Source: Thraustochytrium aureum
Taxonomy: Eukaryota
Reading direction: 5' to 3'
Assembly: GCA_012862495.1 (NCBI GenBank)
Contig: BLSG01000370.1
Span: forward strand, 96,039-116,038
DNA length: 20,000 nt
The position numbers and the translations under genes are program-made. Positions 2,785 to 19,216 of this stretch are shown one piece after another (the first letter of the stretch is position 1; each line of letters opens with the position of its first letter). The notes under the pieces were generated by a model. The model saw only the letters and a list, made by a program, of their open reading frames with translations, had not been told where the DNA came from and made no database searches.

Positions 2785-3601
2785 ATGGAGTCGAAACGCG
2801 AGGGAAAGGAGGACGAGTTTCGCAGCCTCGGCAACTCGAGGAGCAACTTGACAGGCCCAGCGCTTTTTGGAGCAAGGGGCAAGCGGAACAGCTTCGGCCC
2901 GACGCCGGCTTCTGAAGCCAAGCTCGTCGATGAGAGCGACGAGGAAGACGAGCCCACGCAGGTGCAAGTACAAAGTGATCTTGTGCGGCGATGGCGCAGT
3001 GGGCAAGACCTCGATCGCAACGCGATTCACACAAGACCACTTTCAAAAGTCGTACAAGCAGACAATCGGGCTCGACTTTTTCATCAAAAGGCTCGTGCTC
3101 CCAGGCGAAGTCAACGTCGCGTTGCAGATCTGGGACATTGGTGGCCAGTCGATCGGGTCGCGAATGCTGCAAAACTACATTTTCGGCGCCGACGCGGTCC
3201 TGCTCTGCTATGACGTCACCAACTACCAGAGCTTCCAAAACCTGGAGGACTGGTTCCGCCTCGTCAAGCGCACCTTTGCAGATCGTACCATGCCCTACGT
3301 CGCACTCGTTGCAAACAAAGTAGACCTCAACCACCTGCGCGCCGTGACCGAGGACAAGCACAACGAGTTTGCAGACGAGAACGACTTTTACTCGTACAGC
3401 ATGTCGGCCAAAAGCGGCGACAACGTCAGGGGCTGCTTCCACCGCATCGCAGCAGACCTTGCAGATGTCGTGCTCACGCGCCCAGAGTTTCAAGTCGCCC
3501 ACCAGGTTGTCAAGGCCGAGATCGTCGAGCACGAGAAGGACGACCCCAATGTTGTTGCACCAAATGTTGCGCTTCAGGGCAGCAAGTGCTTGATCTCGTA
3601 G
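2785..3601 (+). CDS. RAB28: Rab28 small GTPase (apparent 1-nt frameshift near 2965-2968)
   Basis: Motifs YKVILCGDGAVGKTS, YKQTIGLDFF, LQIWDIGGQSIG (the DIGGQ variant is typical of Rab28), YDVTNYQSFQNLEDW, NKVDL, SAK and C-terminal CaaX CLIS. The acidic DESDEEDE N-terminus typical of Rab28 lies in the upstream frame (ATG 2785) and joins if one A in 'gtgcaagtac' is removed. Confidence 0.9.
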
Positions 3602-5208: not shown

Positions 5209-6582
5209 ATGTGGATGAATCAATATCGCAGAGACAGCGGCGAAATCATGGAAAACAAACTGGACACACTTCCACACGACATTTCAACCCGGCGAAAGCA
5301 CGAGGCCGAGGCCGGCGACTGCGTGCGCGCAGACCTGCAACAAACACAAACCGTTAGCGGGGCTTTCGCCCAGGCTGGCCACGGCAAGCAGCGCAGCAAC
5401 GAACTTGCACCCGATGGCGGCCCCGGAGCAGGCCACGGCCAAGGCGAAACACTCGTAAATGGCGCGAGCTCGGCCCGGTTGGACGCGCGCAGCGCCTTTA
5501 TCTCGGTCTCGACTGGGGTGCAGCTGGCGCCGCCGCAGGCTCAAGAATTAACACAAGTACACGCAAACGGTTTTGGGGAAGACGGCTCAGCAACATCGAG
5601 CGGGATCCCGTTCATGGCAGGGTTTCCCGGCGAGTCGGGCCCAGAGCATGCCGGCAGTCAGGGGGGGGGAGGGCCCCGAGGTGGCCACCGTGGAGGACGG
5701 CAAAAGGGCTTCCACAGCGGTGTCGGGCGATCGCACGGACGTCGGGGAAACGGTGGGTCTGGCCATCAAGGCAGCAGGCCCGAGATCGCATCTCCCAACG
5801 GCGGCCAGCCTCGAGGGCGCAGACAAAGCCAGCACGGTGGCGGAGAAGGCTGGACATCAGAAAAGGCCAAGCCAACAGCTGGCTACACGTGCAAGATCTG
5901 CGGCAAGCAGGGCGGGGCGGTCGACTCGCATTGGTTTCAGCTTTGCCCGAGCAGCAGCGCGCAGCAGTCGAGCGGGCCGCGGACCTTCAAACCGCCACGT
6001 GAAGGATACGTATGCAAGCTGTGCGGTCAGGTTGGGGGCAAGCCAAACTCGCACTGGTTTCAGCAGTGCCCGTCAAGGGCTCCCGACTTCAGCGCGATGC
6101 AGGTTCCTGGATACGGCCCGCGGCCGGCGATGGGCCCGGCCCTGCTGCCTGGCATGCTGATGCAACCGCCGCCCTTTGGCGAGTACCATCAAGTCATGTA
6201 CTTGCCATCAAACCAGCTCTACTTTATGCAGGCGCTGCCACAGCAGATCCCGGGCGGGGGGGCGCCACCGGCGCACTCGCCAACCAGCCAAGCGCCCCCG
6301 ATGCACGCCCTGATGCAGCACTCGCCTGGGACACCGATCGCGCAGCACTCGTTCGGGTATTCTCCGCAAGTCCTCTACCCGACATCAGCTGCGGGAAGCC
6401 CTGTCGGCTCCCACCCCGCGTTGGGCGGCGTGCCAGGGTCGCCACCATTTGCCTTGCAGCGCCACGAGTATGCCGTCTACCAGGCAGGTCAGCGCCAGCC
6501 CGAGATGGACGTCCCGCGGTCCAGTGCTTCCAGCGGTTTGGACGGGACTGCGGCGGGGGAGCAGGGATATGCATCTCAGTAA
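5209..6582 (+). CDS. Low-complexity putative RNA-binding protein with two CCHC-type zinc knuckles
   Basis: Long open frame with an RGG/GR-rich segment, two repeats (KPTAGYTCKICGKQGGAVDSHWFQLCP and KPPREGYVCKLCGQVGGKPNSHWFQQCP) and a P/Q/S-rich C-terminus. The start is uncertain and may lie upstream or in the gap. Confidence 0.7.
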   Translation: MWMNQYRRDSGEIMENKLDTLPHDISTRRKHEAEAGDCVRADLQQTQTVSGAFAQAGHGKQRSNELAPDGGPGAGHGQGETLVNGASSARLDARSAFISVSTGVQLAPPQAQELTQVHANGFGEDGSATSSGIPFMAGFPGESGPEHAGSQGGGGPRGGHRGGRQKGFHSGVGRSHGRRGNGGSGHQGSRPEIASPNGGQPRGRRQSQHGGGEGWTSEKAKPTAGYTCKICGKQGGAVDSHWFQLCPSSSAQQSSGPRTFKPPREGYVCKLCGQVGGKPNSHWFQQCPSRAPDFSAMQVPGYGPRPAMGPALLPGMLMQPPPFGEYHQVMYLPSNQLYFMQALPQQIPGGGAPPAHSPTSQAPPMHALMQHSPGTPIAQHSFGYSPQVLYPTSAAGSPVGSHPALGGVPGSPPFALQRHEYAVYQAGQRQPEMDVPRSSASSGLDGTAAGEQGYASQ

Positions 6583-8516: not shown

Positions 8517-9477
8517 TTTGCAGTTGGCGAAGTTTACGCACCCGCGGGCGCGCTTCTTTCTTCGGCAAAAGGCGTGCTTTCATTGCTGTCGCGACTCGTC
8601 ACAGTGGACAAGAAAACGCAAATCTGAACAGCTTCGAGTTCACATTTGACTATGTCAACATGCAGCTGTGTTGCTGTGTTGATGTTGTGCTTGTGTCACT
8701 CGCCTCGGTTGTCAGGCTTTTGAGAAGCGACAGGCTTGGAAAATCAGCGCAGGGTCGTTTGCCGACTAACCCACAAGGCTACAAGCCACAAGCAGCGACG
8801 CCGGCCATCGCTGCTCCTGAAGCTGAGCGCGACCAGGCCCGGCTCTGCGCCGCAAGTTGCCGCGCTCGCCGTAAAATTTCGGAAGAGCAAGCCATAGGCT
8901 AGTTAGAGTACCTTCTCGAGCAGAGCGGGTGATGGATCCGTTACGCCCTCGCACTTGCACACCAAGCACATCTGCTCTGAAAGGAAGCTGGTCGCCGAAC
9001 CAACAAGCAACACCTCAGGGCACTTGTTTGAGGTGGCGTAAAAGCCAGTGCAGGCTGCTTGAGGATTGCTTTTTTTATGATGCTCCATGCAAGTGTGAAC
9101 CTCTGCCATTCTCCTGCTGAGCAGGCAGCGTGTTGTTAGATCCTATCGGCGCGGAGCAGCCTATGCATCCATCAAAGCCGACGCAGACGAAACGTAGAAA
9201 AGCGCCGACAAAAACAACAGATTGGTCAGAATTGGAAGAAATGAGTCTCCGCCCGTCGCGGGCAGAGGCCCTCCAGTTTTAAGGAATGCTAGGCCGACGA
9301 AGAAGCGAGGCTGCAGCCAGCCCAGTTTTGGCCACGCTGCAAACTCGATTCGCGCCAAACCTCGAAGCGCAGGTTCGTGCCTGTATTTTAAAGCCTAATT
9401 CGAGCGTGGCTTCGGCTTCGAGCCAGGGTTGCTCCCGACCGCTGTAGAAGGCTGCTCTCAACGCTGCAAAGAAGAAA

Positions 9478-11817
9478 ATGACGGCTGGTCTGGGATTCGA
9501 GCCAACGAGGCTCCGAGCACTGTCCGAGGTGGTCCCAAAGGACGGATTGAGCATCCACGCGATCGACCCCTTCGAATTTGGCGCACAGCTGTGCACCGCG
9601 GTTACGAGCATGTTTCTTGTGGGGTTCTATTCGTTTCAGATGTACAACGGGCGCTGCAACTTTCACCCGTTGTACGTTCAGTCCGTGACCGCGCTTGTGT
9701 ACTCTTTGTCCGCGTTTGGGCTGGCCGGATCCCTCCAAGTGCACATGATTAACAGCGACCAGTCCAAAACCGTCGTTAATCTCGGTCGGTACCTCTTTTG
9801 GACCATGACGTGTCCCGTCGTCCTCGCCAACCTTACTGGGCTTCTTAGCAGACTCAACCCCGAGGGGACGCCGCTGTCGTTCACGATCTGGATCATGTGC
9901 AAGGACATCATCCTGACCAGCTGCGGAATCATCGCAGCGTTTCAAGAGGACATGACCATCAAGACCTTCTTCATCGTGGCTGCAGTCTTGCTCTACGTGT
10001 GGATGCTTTGGGCACTGTACAAGCTTGGGGAGGAGAATCGGCCGCTTTTCCCTCCGCGCATATGGAACTGGGTCGTCCTTGTCGGAGGGATGATCGTCGT
10101 TACCTGGAGCTCTTTCCCAGTGCTCTACGTCCTTGGGACGCCTGTTCTTGGCCTCACCTCGACAACCGTCGACAACATCCTTCACGCTTTCAGCGACCTG
10201 TTTGCCAAAAACCTCACCGGGTTTGCCATCTGGTACACCCGATTCTTCATCATCGAGCCGTACTTTGAGACCGAGCAAAGGAAGGCTATGGCGCTTGGTC
10301 CTCAAGGCTACGTCTCTTCCTACCATGCTCTCGGACTCGACCACGCTCGCAGCATCAAGCGGCGGATCATCAAGCAGAAGAACGACAACGACCGCTACGT
10401 CATTGTTGTTGAGGCTCGGGTGGAGCTGCAACGACTCTTCCAACTCCTTCTTGAGAAGGAAAACGTGCATCCTGTTTTCGCTTTCACGCTTGAGGAGGCA
10501 GCTGGTGCCCTCAACCGCGACAACGTAGGGCACTATGATGCCGTGCTGCTTTCGTTGGCCGACCACCTAGCCTCGGTTGACCGCGTCGTGACTTTCCGCA
10601 ACACGTTCTCGCACAGCCCATTCTACATTCCCGTTCTCGGCTACACGTTTGAGGGCCAAAATCGAATCGAAATAGACGACGGCACAGGCATCATGCTCTG
10701 CGACGGGTTTGTTCATCACGTTCTTGACGGGAACCATATCTCCGACACAATCGACTACTGGAAACAAGCGACAGTGCAGTGGCGAACCTCCGACAAAGCG
10801 CTCGAAGCGCAGGAGGAGCTATTTGCGCGCGACTCGCGGAAGCAGCGCGAGGCAAAAGCCACCTCGCCAAATTCTGCAACACTTCGACGCAACTCGTATA
10901 GCGCACGAGCGGCATGGGAAAGCTCACCGAAGTCAGGATCGGGAAGTGTCTCGCCGGCCTCACCCAGCGGGTCTAGCGTTGTGCCAGATAGGGGCGCCAA
11001 GTCGAGCCTTCACGTTCTCACCACAAGTTTGCTGGGAAACGCTGCAATGCAACCCGCCCAGCAGGGTTTCCCTGCGCCAAAACCCGTCAAGCTCCGTCGG
11101 GACTCGTGTAGCAGCAGGATGTCGTGGGAGAGTGCGCACACTGTGGACAGTTCGCTGCAGCCCGTGCAAGCTAGCAAGGCCAGTGGNNNNNNNNNNNNNN
11201 NNNNNNNNNNNNNNNNNNNNNNNNNNNNNNNNNNNNNNNNNNNNNNNNNNNNNNNNNNNNNNNNNNNNNNNNNNNNNNNNNNNNNNNNNNNNNNNNNNNN
11301 NNNNNNNNNNNNNNNNNNNNNNNNNCTAGCAAGGCCAGTGGCGCTCCAGTCAAGCGGGCCAAGTCGAACCTCTCCGTTTTCACTGGCGCACAGAGTCCAA
11401 TGCTCTCTAAAGACGTTGCGTCTCAAGGCAGATCCTCCACGCCAAACTCTGCGAGGCTGCGTCGCGACTCGTACGGCAGTCGAACGTCATGGGAGAGCAC
11501 GAATAGCGCAAACAGTTTGCAGTCGGCGGCGGCCATCGGAGACATGGAGCCCGTCGTCGTTCTCAGCGCGCCGAAAACGACTACTAGTGATGACGCACGA
11601 TCGCAGCCCGCGCAACACCAGTCACCGCAGGCGCCATGGGACGAGGAAGCACGTCACCCAAACTCGCCAGCATCCCCCGCAACTGCAGAGAGCAGCCAGA
11701 CTGAACCCCAGATCGTGCTACAGCCTTGGCAGCGTCTTGCACGAGATTTGTCGCTGGTCGACTCGCTACTTGGCCAACAACCGCACCACCACCACCACCA
11801 ACAACAACAACAACCGC

Positions 11818-11849
<32 letters not shown>

Positions 11850-11936
11850 CAACAACAACAACGGCCGATACTCGGGAACCACAGCAGAGTCGACCAGCTC
11901 CACAACAACGACAATAACTCGTTCGGATTCCTGTAG
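9478..11936 (+). CDS. Anion channelrhodopsin-like microbial rhodopsin (labyrinthulid ACR/RubyACR-like) with receiver-like domain and long cytoplasmic tail
   Basis: Seven hydrophobic helices in aa ~32-260. TM3 RYLFWTMTCPVVLAN has the channelrhodopsin TCP motif; TM4 has D143 (DC-pair Asp); TM6 is TWSSFPVLYVLG; TM7 HAFSDLFAKN contains the retinal-binding Lys244 (10207-10209). The post-gap frame (11400-11936) is the natural continuation. Confidence 0.92.
11775..11862 (+). repeat. (CAC)n/(CAA)n trinucleotide tracts encoding poly-His/poly-Gln in the rhodopsin tail
   Basis: Translates as QQPHHHHHQQQQQPHHHHHQQQQQQQQQQ in the 11400-11936 frame. Confidence 0.85.
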
Positions 11937-12505
11937 GCCAGAGTCCGTCCGCGAGAGTGTCCACCAGCCCGCGCTCGGCAATAAACAAATCAATCATCAA
12001 AACCTTCCTACTCTTCGTGATCGAGGCCACTAGTGGCCGGGACTCGCAGGCTTCGTCTGCTTGTTCGAACGGCGCGCAAGTCTGTCACGGTCCGGGCAAC
12101 AACTGTGATGGCACCTGGCGTGACGGCCGCAGTCCTAGCGGCAGCAGAGCCCAGCCGAACGGCGCTTTCCAGCTCATCATTGTCAGGGCAAAAGCCGCGA
12201 GTCGCAAGCCGAGCTTTCGTTGCATAAGATCAAAGAAGCTTCTATTTTGTTTCGTTCGCTTTGATCTTCGTCCGAACAGAACAGGAAGAATTGTTCTTGT
12301 TGAAAAGTAGTACATGGAGGAGGACGACCAGACCACCGACCCGACGAGCAGCAGGAGAGCAGCCGTCTCGCAGCTCGCAGGACGAGCACCAGGAGAGCAG
12401 CGGTGGCGAAAGTGCGCCTCGCAGCTGGTTTCTGCTTCGCTGGCGTCTTGGGCTCTGTTTGGCGGGTTGTCGTGGACGAGCGAGTCGGAGACCAGCAAAA
12501 CAGGA

Positions 12506-13739
12506 ATGATGCTCGCGGCCACGGTCGCCTACCGAGGTGCCGCGGCTGGGCAGAGGGCCGCCGCGGCGGCAGGGAGGCGCGCCATGTCGTCGAGCGTGTT
12601 CTCCTGGGGCAACGGAGACGACGGGCAGCTTGGACAGCCTCAGGTGGAGAAGTCCGGGATCACGCAGTCCTACGTCGAGGCCACGCCGTTGGTTGTTCCA
12701 GGACTCAACGACCAGGGCGTGAGCGACATCTCGTGCGGGTTCAAGCACTCGGCCGCCGTAACTGAGGACGGTCGAGTGCTGACCTGGGGAAAGGCTGACG
12801 AGAGCCTGCTGGGGCACGCTGCGGGCGATGGCAAATACTGCCTGCGGCCGACGCTTGTCGAGGGGTTTGGCGGTGCGCGCGCCAAGTCGGTGGTGTGCGG
12901 CGAGAAACACACCGTTGTCGTCACCGACGAGGGCAACGTGTTCTCGTGGGGCTGGGGCGGGAGCTTCTTTTCCGGCGCCGGGGGGGCTCGGCCTCGGCGA
13001 CACTAACGAGCGCACGCGACCCGCGCAAGTCATGTTTGGCGGCACCGACGAGGTCAAGATCAAAAAGGTGGCTTGCGGCCGCCTGCACACAATTGCGCTC
13101 GGCGTTGACGGCGAGGTCTGGACTTGGGGCCGCGGCGAAAACGGCCGGCTTGGCAACGGCGGCAACGGGGACCAGCTCGAGCCGTTCCCGGTCGAGTTTT
13201 TCCTGGACATTGAGGAAAAGTGCATCGACGTCGCCAGTGGCAATTCGTTCTGTTTGGCGCTCACCGAGAGCGGGCAGATTTACGGCTGGGGCAAAAACGA
13301 CCAGAGCCAGCTCGGCCTCGGTGGCGGCATCGCGATGGACATGTACGCGATGGAGGACATGCCGCGTCACGTAGAAAACCTGGCGCACGAGAAGATCGAG
13401 TCGCTGGGGGCGGGTGGGTCACACGCGCTCGCCGTGACAGACAAGGGCGAGGTCTACTTTTGGGGCATGCGGCTGTGGATGGAGCCGCACAAAATGACCG
13501 CGCTGAGTGAGCACCGAGTTGTGCAGGCCGACTGTGGCAACGGGTTTTCCGCGGTGCTTTGCAACGAGGGTAACCTGTTCACCTGGGGCAAGGGCCTCGC
13601 AACGCGTCAGTCGGGCGTTCTTGGGCACGGCGACAAACGGCGCCACGCCCAGCCCGAGCTCGTGGAGAGCCTGAAAGGCGTCTCACTGAAAAAGGTCTCG
13701 TGCGGGAACCGCCACGCGGCGGCCTTGACTGCCGCCTGA
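12506..13739 (+). CDS. RCC1-repeat (beta-propeller) protein with probable mitochondrial targeting peptide; frameshift in G7 run at 12980-12986
   Basis: Repeated RCC1 motifs: VFSWGNGDDGQLG, ISCGFKHSAAVTEDGRVLTWG, VVCGEKHTVVVTDEGNVFSWG, VACGRLHTIALGVDGEVWTWGRGENGRLG, IYGWGKNDQSQLG and VSCGNRHAAAL. The N-terminus MMLAATVAYRGAAAGQRAAAAAGRRAMSS is Arg/Ala-rich and acid-free. Confidence 0.88.
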
Positions 13740-16021: not shown

Positions 16022-17660
16022 TTACTGGACCACGTGGTCAAAGGGCCGAGTGCCCTTGAGTGAGGTCCAGTCGCGGTCCGTGTTGGCATCGACGAGGGCA
16101 AGCATCTCGCGGAGGGCCTCAGCATGCGCAGGGTCGTCGACGAGGTTTATGCGCTCGATGTTGCCCGGGTCAGCGTACTTGTACAGCTGGACCTCGCGCC
16201 GCGGCGAGGGGGCGTAGGCAAGCGCACGGGAAAGGGACGTTGCCTTGCGGTGGCGCTTGACGTAAAAGATGAGGCGGTGTTGCGCGGTTCGCAGAGAGTA
16301 ACCAATCCACCCCCTGGACTTGTGAGACTGGTACTGCGAGACTGCCGCGCCACGCACCGCCCCTGCCGGGTCGACGAGCAGAGGCACGAGGCTGACCCCA
16401 GCGAGGGCCCCCGTGGGAACGATGCCGCAAATAGCCGCCACAGTGGGAAAGATGTCCACCGAGTCGACTGGGCAGCCTGCGCTCTTGCCAACGCCTGCGC
16501 GCGCCTCCGGGTGCTCGTCGAGGTAGTTGGGCGGGGGGAGTGACAGCTAGCGGGACCCGCGTCGACTGCTCGAGCTGCGTCTTCTTGGCCCACAGGCCGT
16601 TGTCCCCAAGGTGAAAGCCGTGGTCGCCCCAAACGACCACGAGCGTGTCGCGCCGAACCGCCTCGCGCGCCTCGAGCGCCGAGACAAGACGACCGACCTG
16701 TGAATCTACGTAGGTCACACTCGCATAGTACGCGCGCGCGCGCTGGGCGGCCGACACGGACCGCCAGCCCTTGTACGACTCTACCTCCTTGGAATTGTAT
16801 CGTGTCCAGGCAGAGCTCTGGTCGCGCCAGAACCGGCTGTCGTTGTCGTCGAGCGCAGCGGTGAAGGCCTCGTCCGAAATATTTTGGTACGGCTCCCACG
16901 CGCTATTCGGCGCAACCCATGGCAAGTGGGGAAGCGAAAACCCAACAGCCAGGAAGAAAGGCTCGCCCGAGTCTGCGAGCGCACTGAGACGGCCGATGGC
17001 GTGCGAGGCGATGCAGTAGTCGAGCGAGAGGTGGAGTAGCGCGTCGTCAAAGCTGTGCACGAGCTTTTGGTGCCTTTCGAGGGGTTTGAGTCCAGCGCCG
17101 GGAAAGAACTCGACTTGCACGTTGCCACACGCTGGAGTCGGGCCGAACAGGAGCGCTTTGATCGGGTAGCTGGTGTCCCAGGAACACTGCGCCTTGCTTG
17201 CGGAGCAAGTTTCGGGTGAGCGGAGGTCGCTGGCTCGGGTCCGCCTTTTTCTGGGGCGAGGAAAGCTGCGAAGGTCGAAAAGCTTGCCCACTGACTCTGC
17301 CCTGTACCCGTTTGCTCGAAAGAGGCCGGGCAGGGTGACAAGATTGGCGTTGAACCTGCGAAAGCTGGGCTCGAACCCCCATATCCGCAGGGCATCGGGG
17401 CGACGCCCTGCCAGCATGCTCGCTCGCGATGGGGCGCACTCGCTCTTCGCCGAGTGCGCGTTTGACAGGATCAAGCCTTGGCCGAAGAGTTTGTCAAGGT
17501 GAGGTGTGTGAGCGAGCTCGTCGCCCATCGCGCCCAGGTTGGCGTTCAGGTCGTCAATCGCGATCAGGAGCACGTTGTGCTTGGCCGCCTTGGCGCAGAC
17601 CGCAAGGCCCGCTGCCGCCGTGGCCAGGCCGACCAGTACATAACGCGCCCTCGCTTGCAT
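16022..17660 (-). CDS. Secreted/lysosomal formylglycine-dependent sulfatase, iduronate-2-sulfatase-like; frameshift in G6 run at 16533-16538
   Basis: Signal-peptide-like N-terminus, NVLLIAIDDL, CxPSR motif ECAPSRASMLAGR, GKLFD, VGFSLPHLPW, AYYASVTYVDSQVGRL and WGDHGFHLGDNGLWAK. After removing one base the frame continues as VDSVDIFPT...GYSLRT...QLY...DPGNIERINL. Confidence 0.9.
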
Positions 17661-18120
17661 CGTGCTTGCAGCTCCGACCCGCCGTCGTTCCCTCCACGTT
17701 TCGCGTCGCAGAGCCTTGTGCTCCGGGAGAGGCAGCCCTCTCCCAGCGCTGCTCTGGCTTGTTCTGCCTCGCTCTGCCTCGGTTGTTTGTCGGCGTCGCA
17801 GCGCTCTGCCTCAGGCTGCTCGCTGGTCGTTTGTGCGTTTGGTTGGGTCTTTCAGACTCTTTGTCTTGTCTGAAAGAAAGATGCGAGCACGATGTGGACA
17901 CATCAGCATGATCATGGGCCAACGTGAAGTTGATCGTGAACAAGACCGCTGCTGGCTTCGCTGCGCAGGACGCCCGCCAAGCGCGTGAAAGGCTTGCGAA
18001 GCGTAATTACAATAGTAGTTGTAGCTAGCGCTGGCCTGCTCGTCGGCCATGGATCGAGTTGGGGTAGAGTACTTGCTACAGTCAGGGCCAGAGGACGACG
18101 CACGTGCGCGAGTGGCCGAG

Positions 18121-19216
18121 TTAATGCCCTCGGCGAGCGGCGAGCGTGGCTCGGACGTGCGCGGCAAAGTCCAAGGGCTCGCCAGCTGTTNNNNNNNNNN
18201 NNNNNNNNNNNNNNNNNNNNNNNNNNNNNNNNNNNNNNNNNNNNNNNNNNNNNNNNNNNNNNNNNNNNNNNNNNNNNNNNNNNNNNNNNNNNNNNNNNNN
18301 NNNNNNNNNNNNNNNNNNNNNNNNNNNNNNNNNNNNNNNNNNNNNNNNNNNNNNNNNNNNNNNNNNNNNNNNNNNNNNNNNNNNNNNNNNNNNNNNNNNN
18401 NNNNNNNNNNNNNNNNNNNNNNNNNNNNNNNNNNNNNNNNNNNNNNNNNNNNNNNNNNNNNNNNNNNNNNNNNNNNNNNNNNNNNNNNNNNNNNNNNNNN
18501 NNNNNNNNNNNNNNNNNNNNNNNNNNNNNNNNNNNNNNNNNNNNNNNNNNNNNNNNNNNNNNNNNNNNNNNNNNNNNNNNNNNNNNNNNNNNNNNNNNNN
18601 NNNNNNNNNNNNNNNNNNNNNNNNNNNNNNNNNNNNNNNNNNNNNNNNNNNNNNNNNNNNNNNNNNNNNNNNNNNNNNNNNNNNNNNNNNNNNNNNNNNN
18701 NNNNNNNNNNNNNNNNNNNNNNNNNNNNNNNNNNNNNNNNNNNNNNNNNNNNNNNNNNNNNNNNNNNNNNNNNNNNNNNNNNNNNNNNNNNNNNNNNNNN
18801 NNNNNNNNNNNNNNNNNNNNNNNNNNNNNNNNNNNNNNNNNNNNNNNNNNNNNNNNNNNNNNNNNNNNNNNNNNNNNGACCCCGACGTGCTCGACGTGCT
18901 CAAACTGGTACGGCATGCTGATTTCCAGCTGGCCCAGCTCGCCCTCCCCGTCGGCAGCGGGCTTCTTCTTGAACTTTTTCCCAAGCAGCGACCTCGACGG
19001 TTTCGGCGGGGCCACGTGCGCCCCAATCACGCTCATCGCTCGCGTGTTGGTCTCGTTCTGCGAGGCGCCCTTCGGAACCAGGTTGGCCCACACGTCCGGC
19101 AGCCCGCGAAAGGTCTGGCTCGTCGGGTCCCACTCCACGTGCACGCACCGCAGCACGTTGGTGGGCTGCCCGATCGTGTCATCCTCCCCGGCGTGCCTCT
19201 TCTCCAGCTTGACCAT
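18121..19216 (-). CDS. Protein with two CRIB/PBD motifs, probably a PAK/STE20-family kinase (central part in gap)
   Basis: From ATG 19216: CRIB1 IGQPTNVLRCVHVEWDPTSQTFRGLPDVW and CRIB2 EISMPYQFEHVEHVGV. The gap covers 18191-18877, so no kinase domain is visible. The post-gap frame TAGEPLDFAAHVRATLAARRGH* is a plausible C-terminus, but this is inferred. Confidence 0.6.

Follow-up and report, generated by a model that had tools for sequence, protein, structure and literature searches.

The window analysed here, a stretch of 20,000 nucleotides from the marine, fungus-like protist Thraustochytrium aureum, carries a gene for a microbial rhodopsin, and the question it raises is whether this protein is a new, red-shifted anion channelrhodopsin (ACR) comparable to the RubyACRs, as the initial annotation had proposed, or a known protein with another colour. 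The coordinates of its features are collected in Table 1.

The gene and its catalogued counterpart

The reading frame starts at position 9478 of the forward strand and has no introns. The span first assigned to it, 9478..10260, corresponds to aa 1-261, and the protein continues beyond this. Its GC3 is 0.72, compared to 0.69-0.78 in three other frames of the window, i.e. its codon use resembles that of the neighbouring ORFs. Contigs of a public DNA run, possibly not independent of the window, agreed with it without any substitution over 9202-9748 and with two substitutions over 9888-11186. The coding sequence is then interrupted by an N gap of 139 bases (11187..11325), whose flanks share an overlap of 16 bases vs 0-6 at the other five gaps, and which is likely a scaffolding artefact. 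A single contig of run X2 (depth 3.1) bridges 11170 to 11326 and extends 117 letters on one side and 155 on the other. Closing the gap gives a protein of 767 aa that ends at 11936 and has the third copy of a repeated tail motif in frame, so that the likely full length of the gene (~767 aa) can now be given across the assembly gap. The literal ORF of 851 aa, which runs to 12033 across the N run, was rejected because its tail is out of frame and the X2 contig joins the flanks. Near the C terminus there is also a His/Gln homopolymer tract (11775-11870, forward strand) outside the cover of the public contigs.

Two short motifs of the window protein match only one row, number 335, in Data Set S1 of PMC8406140. 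This row is ACR3 of T. aureum ATCC 34304, and its 300 residues correspond by eye to aa 1-300 of our protein, with no difference seen; the identity is a by-eye reading plus the two motif matches. In the part of the data set consulted, TaACR3 is credited to Govorunova et al. 2020 and marked 'Tested? N'; the name cell reads 'T ACR3' and the alignment file of the same paper has TaACR1-3. As judged from its sequence, the window protein is thus the already known, catalogued TaACR3, and the novelty left open in the initial annotation is refuted. The row ends at 300 aa, and the receiver-like domain and tail of the gene lie outside it. Absence from the databases was misleading about novelty because the match showed only in the supplement of a paper: word-index searches (1, 3 and 4 matches) and HMMER (133) found no protein more than 46% identical, and an exact look-up of the gap-cut window protein in a protein collection gave no match, as expected for a gap-cut sequence. 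Searches of the full-text literature, of PMC11473104 with its supplements and of the part of the PMC12448745 supplement consulted turned up no functional study of TaACR3, though they may miss tests published in subscription journals.

Table 1 Features of the rhodopsin gene in the window
Feature	Position	Strand	Basis or remark
Whole gene, intronless	9478..11936	+	~767 aa with N gap closed; stop 11934-11936
Seven-helix rhodopsin domain, aa 31-256	9568..10245	+	Pfam PF01036; AlphaFold model; best fold matches are channelrhodopsins
T71 (GtACR1 E68, AlACR1 T72)	9688..9690	+	Thr in 13/13 rows; family-wide, not Ruby-specific
F107 (BR D85, AlACR1 F108)	9796..9798	+	Phe in 8/13 rows; sole shared Ruby pocket residue
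T111-C112-P113 (TCP)	9808..9816	+	Aligns to C1C2 TCP
D143, DC-pair partner of C112	9904-9906	+	Aligns to C1C2 Asp
V170 (Tyr in RubyACRs: AlACR1 Y171, HfACR1 Y167)	9985..9987	+	13-row alignment
Y173, putative BR M145 ring-pocket place	9994..9996	+	13-row alignment; Gly in C1C2
W210 and P214, canonical BR W182/P186	10105..10119	+	Gln, Ile in RubyACRs
D240 (BR D212) to Schiff-base K244	10195..10209	+	Residue read; alignment to C1C2
Receiver (response-regulator)-like domain, aa ~306-437	10393..10788	+	VIA-align; structure-atlas lead
Ser-rich tail, three LRRxSxxxRxxWE motifs (10882, 11092, 11457)	10882..11495	+	Sequence read
N gap, 139 bases	11187..11325	.	Flanks share 16-base overlap

The rhodopsin core, its relatives and the C-terminal part

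Pfam recognises Bac_rhodopsin (PF01036) at aa 64-255 with an E of 1.5e-18, and the best 8 of 93 matches in a PDB sequence search were all channelrhodopsins (C1C2, E 1e-12). The AlphaFold model built with 46 sequences has a mean pLDDT of 87 and seven long helices, and its Foldseek matches include ChR2, KnChR, C1C2, Chrimson and GtACR1. VIA-align placed KnChR at the top (Z 26.5, rmsd 2.5 Å, 237 residues), with several pumps within 1 Z. An earlier model from 4 sequences was too poor (pLDDT 54) and its matches to Slo1 were noise, absent among the matches listed for the 46-sequence model. The seven helices with the Schiff-base lysine K244 in TM7 make the protein a microbial (type 1) rhodopsin, and the TCP motif, the Cys/Asp pair of TM3-TM4 and its nearest solved relatives identify it as a channelrhodopsin. 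The columns of D240 and K244 are the only two invariant ones in the 46-row alignment.

The residues that had been read initially (T71, R104, Y105, F107, W108, T111-C112-P113, N118, D143, D240 and K244) are all present with that numbering, and the pattern that they form is far beyond chance. The register of TM2 to GtACR1, set by eye, is borne out by a second reading by eye (Y66 = Y63, T71 = E68, H63 = E60), and TM2 does lack glutamate: residues 60-100 hold no Glu and a single Asp (D94, in a loop hairpin). Thr at the GtACR1 E68 place in such a TM2, and the non-carboxylate F107 at the BR D85 place with D240 kept, are both as in labyrinthulean ACRs.

Scanning 1.84 billion representatives with HMMER yielded 133 hits, the best one being 45% identical. 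The top 12 of them were aligned with the window protein (13 rows), and a phylogeny was built from the window protein and 41 of the 133, omitting fragments and most weaker hits. In this tree the window protein falls within a labyrinthulean clade of 12 rows (100/98) and, inside it, in a subclade of 8 rows (96/94). By eye, the named members of the 12-row clade are P0010 (Hondaea fermentalgiana GBG24568.1, which reads as the RubyACR HfACR1), P0009 (SaACR2), P0013 (SaACR3) and P0006 (AlACR2-like). The branch of the window protein is long (1.03) and lies apart from a 7-row group of weak support to which HfACR1 belongs; over the 7TM the protein is only 38-43% identical to tested members. Its sequence makes the protein an anion channelrhodopsin of the labyrinthulean type, and the proposed ACR type in a non-photosynthetic protist is supported both by this clade and by the listing as T. 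aureum ACR3. All seven labyrinthulean homologs tested gave photocurrents, and the reversal potential tracked Cl- where it was measured (10.1101/2020.04.15.043158). Among the labyrinthulean rows consulted of PMC8406140 Data Set S1, selectivity is confirmed only for AlACR1 and HfACR1, and the portion of that paper available states that a neutral D85 place alone is no proof of anion selectivity. The low identity (38-43%) and the long branch also count against the reading as a chloride channel of this family.

AlACR2 and SaACR2 resemble the window protein in TM3 (F/T/C), in TM6 (W and P), in the Thr at the E68 place and in having the receiver-like domain; its 7TM identity is 43% to P0006 (AlACR2-like) and 39% to P0009 (SaACR2). 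They differ in having Ser-Phe instead of Ala169-Val170 and small residues at 173, and SaACR2 ends with a MYND finger, which the window protein lacks. MYND zinc fingers (E 8.2e-08 at best) terminate three of the 13 aligned ACRs (P0009, P0011 and P0013), and the tail of the window protein is of low complexity. The closest other row seen in the catalogue is, by eye, P1ACR2 of Parietichytrium sp. I65-24A (PMC8406140 Data Set S1, row 323), which shares the start of TM1-TM2, the Phe at the counterion place, the TM3-TM4 loop motif and the Tyr at the 173 place but has Val where the window protein has P214. This likeness was read by eye, and P1ACR2 is outside the tree. P1ACR2 is a better candidate for a red shift than the window protein, with its Val at BR P186, where Ile is worth 15 nm in AlACR1.

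Other members of the clade deserve mention. The best database match, P0004 (CAK9108303.1), is labelled as the dinoflagellate Durusdinium trenchii and comes from a 12-kb contig, yet it nests within the labyrinthulean ACRs; it likely stems from thraustochytrid contamination of that assembly, the alternative being a transfer to the dinoflagellate. P0007 and P0008 (JGI/IMG) pair at 100/100 within the labyrinthulean clade and have Asn at the D85 place, found in none of the labyrinthulean catalogue rows read. For P0003, P0005 and P0008 the longest contig of each is 136,917, which suggests clustered paralogs.

Behind the seven helices, aa 306-437 superpose in VIA-align on the receivers of HupR, NtrX, KdpE and VanR (Z 12.7-13.3, rmsd 2.7-3.9 Å, 116-136 residues). 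Pfam gives no match for this domain in the window protein, and Response_reg appears in one of the 13 members with an E of 0.24. In CheY numbering, with placement by eye, the canonical Asp57 and Lys109 are replaced: Ser359 occupies the place of the phospho-Asp (10 Asn and 2 Asp or Ser in the other 12 rows) and His414, by motif position, about that of Lys109. The repeated motifs of the Ser-rich tail contain RRxS, the consensus of protein kinase A. A C-terminal receiver-like domain devoid of the phospho-Asp is a further labyrinthulean ACR character, and such domains without the phospho-site are described in labyrinthulean channelrhodopsins in the parts consulted of two reports (10.1101/2020.04.15.042127; 10.1101/2020.04.15.043158).

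The retinal pocket and the predicted colour

The RubyACR pocket consists of F108, Y171, Q213 and I217 in AlACR1 and is conserved in all RubyACRs, which are 76-80% identical to AlACR1; reversion at F108, Y171 and I217 shifts AlACR1 by 10, 20 and 15 nm, in an additive way (10.1101/2020.04.15.043158; two mutant names are printed there as F108W and Y217P, though the text has Ile217 and AlACR3 carries Val at position 108). The RubyACRs (AlACR1, A1ACR1, HfACR1 and T1ACR1; 590-610 nm) share with the window protein the family, the Phe at the D85 place, the Thr at the E68 place and the DC pair. The window protein lacks, however, all three of the remaining residues: in the 13-row alignment its pocket is F107/V170/W210/P214, one of four Ruby residues, vs F104/Y167/Q209/I213 in HfACR1, with V170 at the place of AlACR1 Tyr171, W210 at that of Gln213 (BR W182) and P214 at that of Ile217 (BR P186). 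The combination of Tyr, Gln and Ile is found in one of the 13 rows. The protein is also only 38% identical to HfACR1, the sole RubyACR compared, and is not its sister. The two markers on which a Ruby-like colour had been proposed are real, but Thr at E68 is found in 13/13 rows and Phe at D85 in 8/13, the tested, non-red AlACR2 and SaACR2 types among them, and since they are family-wide or common they are not diagnostic of RubyACRs. The proposed RubyACR-like red shift is therefore not supported.

AlACR2, with Phe at the D85 place and W and P in TM6 as in the window protein, absorbs in the green at 525 nm (10.1101/2020.04.15.043158). SaACR2, also F/W/P, has been tested and is listed as functional, being green or blue by exclusion according to the parts consulted of two sources (10.1101/2020.04.15.043158; PMC8406140). 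By eye, Ala169-Val170 resembles the Ala-Ile of the blue AlACR3 (485 nm). For Ser replaced by Ala at the position of GtACR1 S156 the prediction is a blue shift of 11-12 nm, seen in two of four cryptophyte cases in the portion available of PMC8406140. Starting from the 525 nm of AlACR2 and applying Ser to Ala would give about 515 nm, and starting from the 485 nm of AlACR3 and adding 10 nm for the Phe would give about 495 nm. We thus predict an absorption of ~495-530 nm, blue-green to green and not red, although a colour prediction from few residues is context-dependent. The most unusual pocket residue is Tyr173, with Gly, Ala, Ser or Cys in all the other 12 rows, Gly in C1C2 and no counterpart in tested members. 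By offset it would be the ring contact M145 of BR, and its effect on the colour could go in either direction.

Function, alternatives and genomic setting

Taking all together, we consider that the gene encodes TaACR3, a labyrinthulean-family protein that is likely a chloride channel gated by light, with a predicted absorption at ~495-530 nm rather than in the red, with a probability of about three in four for this reading. Retinal bound to K244 would isomerise in light and would open a pore between TM1, 2, 3 and 7, where PMC8406140, in the part consulted, places the channelrhodopsin pore, allowing a passive flow of Cl-. Of the carboxylates, D240 alone would lie at the Schiff base, and the C112/D143 pair would set the rate of closing; in AlACR1, C113A and D144A slow closing (10.1101/2020.04.15.043158). 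More tentatively, the protein may be one of three colour-tuned paralogs (TaACR1-3) in the flagellated zoospore, shifting the membrane potential to steer swimming, and the Asp-less receiver-like domain may serve for targeting or scaffolding and not in a phosphorelay. In the part of PMC12221091 consulted, AlACR1 protein is higher in zoospores than in vegetative cells and falls significantly after settlement, the fall of AlACR2 and AlACR3 being not significant, and Ulkenia zoospores are phototactic according to the portion available of PMC8818676. The literature consulted in part also reports such genes in Aplanochytrium stocchinoi, which lacks zoospores, and this weakens the phototaxis step.

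Among the alternatives, it is unlikely that this is an AlACR2-like ACR that conducts little or not at all, signalling mainly via its cytoplasmic domains or needing native partners. What was recorded from AlACR2, which is F/W/P as well, was mainly an isomerisation current of ~100 pA with only a residual Cl- conductance (10.1101/2020.04.15.043158), and the long branch, the odd pocket residue and the large cytoplasmic part with its three repeated RRxS motifs could be understood in this way, but all the gating residues (R104, C112, D143, D240 and K244) are intact, most tested homologs gave currents in the nA range (10.1101/2020.04.15.043158) and SaACR2 is listed as functional with the same three residues in the part consulted of PMC8406140. 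That the protein conducts cations or pumps ions seems extremely improbable. The best solved-structure matches are indeed chlorophyte cation channels, and the D85 carboxylate is also absent in some cation channelrhodopsins (PMC8406140, as far as available), but identity to these channels is 20-23%, and the matches listed include no labyrinthulean ACR; TM2 has no glutamate, the protein falls within a clade in which the members tested are anion conductors, and the D85 and D96 carboxylates for proton pumping are both missing.

A red-shifted anion channel, be it RubyACR-like or brought to at least 570 nm in a different way, via Tyr173 near the ionone ring, is very unlikely. The Phe at the counterion place is worth ~10 nm in AlACR1 (10.1101/2020.04.15.043158) and with Tyr173 an aromatic and polar side chain lies one turn away from the place of the Ruby Tyr171. 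Against this, V170, W210 and P214 are non-Ruby states (reversion at Y171 and I217 cost AlACR1 20 and 15 nm), the identity to HfACR1 is 38% vs 76-80% among RubyACRs, the tree does not pair the two as sisters, and only 13 of 22 putative pocket positions are in common with HfACR1, the second lowest value of 12 rows. A more speculative version, a long shot to our judgement, is that TaACR3 and P1ACR2 form a long-branch subgroup in which Tyr173 gives an orange-absorbing silencer, perhaps without the long-lasting desensitisation of RubyACRs.

As it stands, the importance of the locus is modest, with a catalogued sequence in a described family, and some 200 natural ACRs exist, mostly blue or green, so that optogenetic anion channels of this type are plentiful. 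The protein is nevertheless a divergent member (at most 46% identical to any database protein found) and possibly a natural control for RubyACR tuning, having the Phe at the counterion place without the other three residues and an unusual Tyr173. If orange or red absorption were true, it would offer a second route to red-shifted silencers.

No functional link of the rhodopsin to the neighbouring genes of the window is apparent. On the forward strand, 2930-3601 codes for a Ras-family small GTPase (Pfam E 1.8e-41), which looks like Rab28, a cilium-linked Rab, and 5209-6582 for a zinc-knuckle protein (Pfam E 5.9e-07). An RCC1-repeat protein follows at 12314-13739 and is divided between two frames that overlap (ORF 12314-13006 and ORF 12828-13739, with the Pfam match on the second), a split that points to an intron or to an erroneous frameshift. 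The reverse strand contains a sulfatase at 16170-17660 (Pfam E 1e-34) and, at 17912-19216, a P21-Rho-binding (CRIB) domain protein (Pfam E 3.3e-09) that is cut by an N gap.
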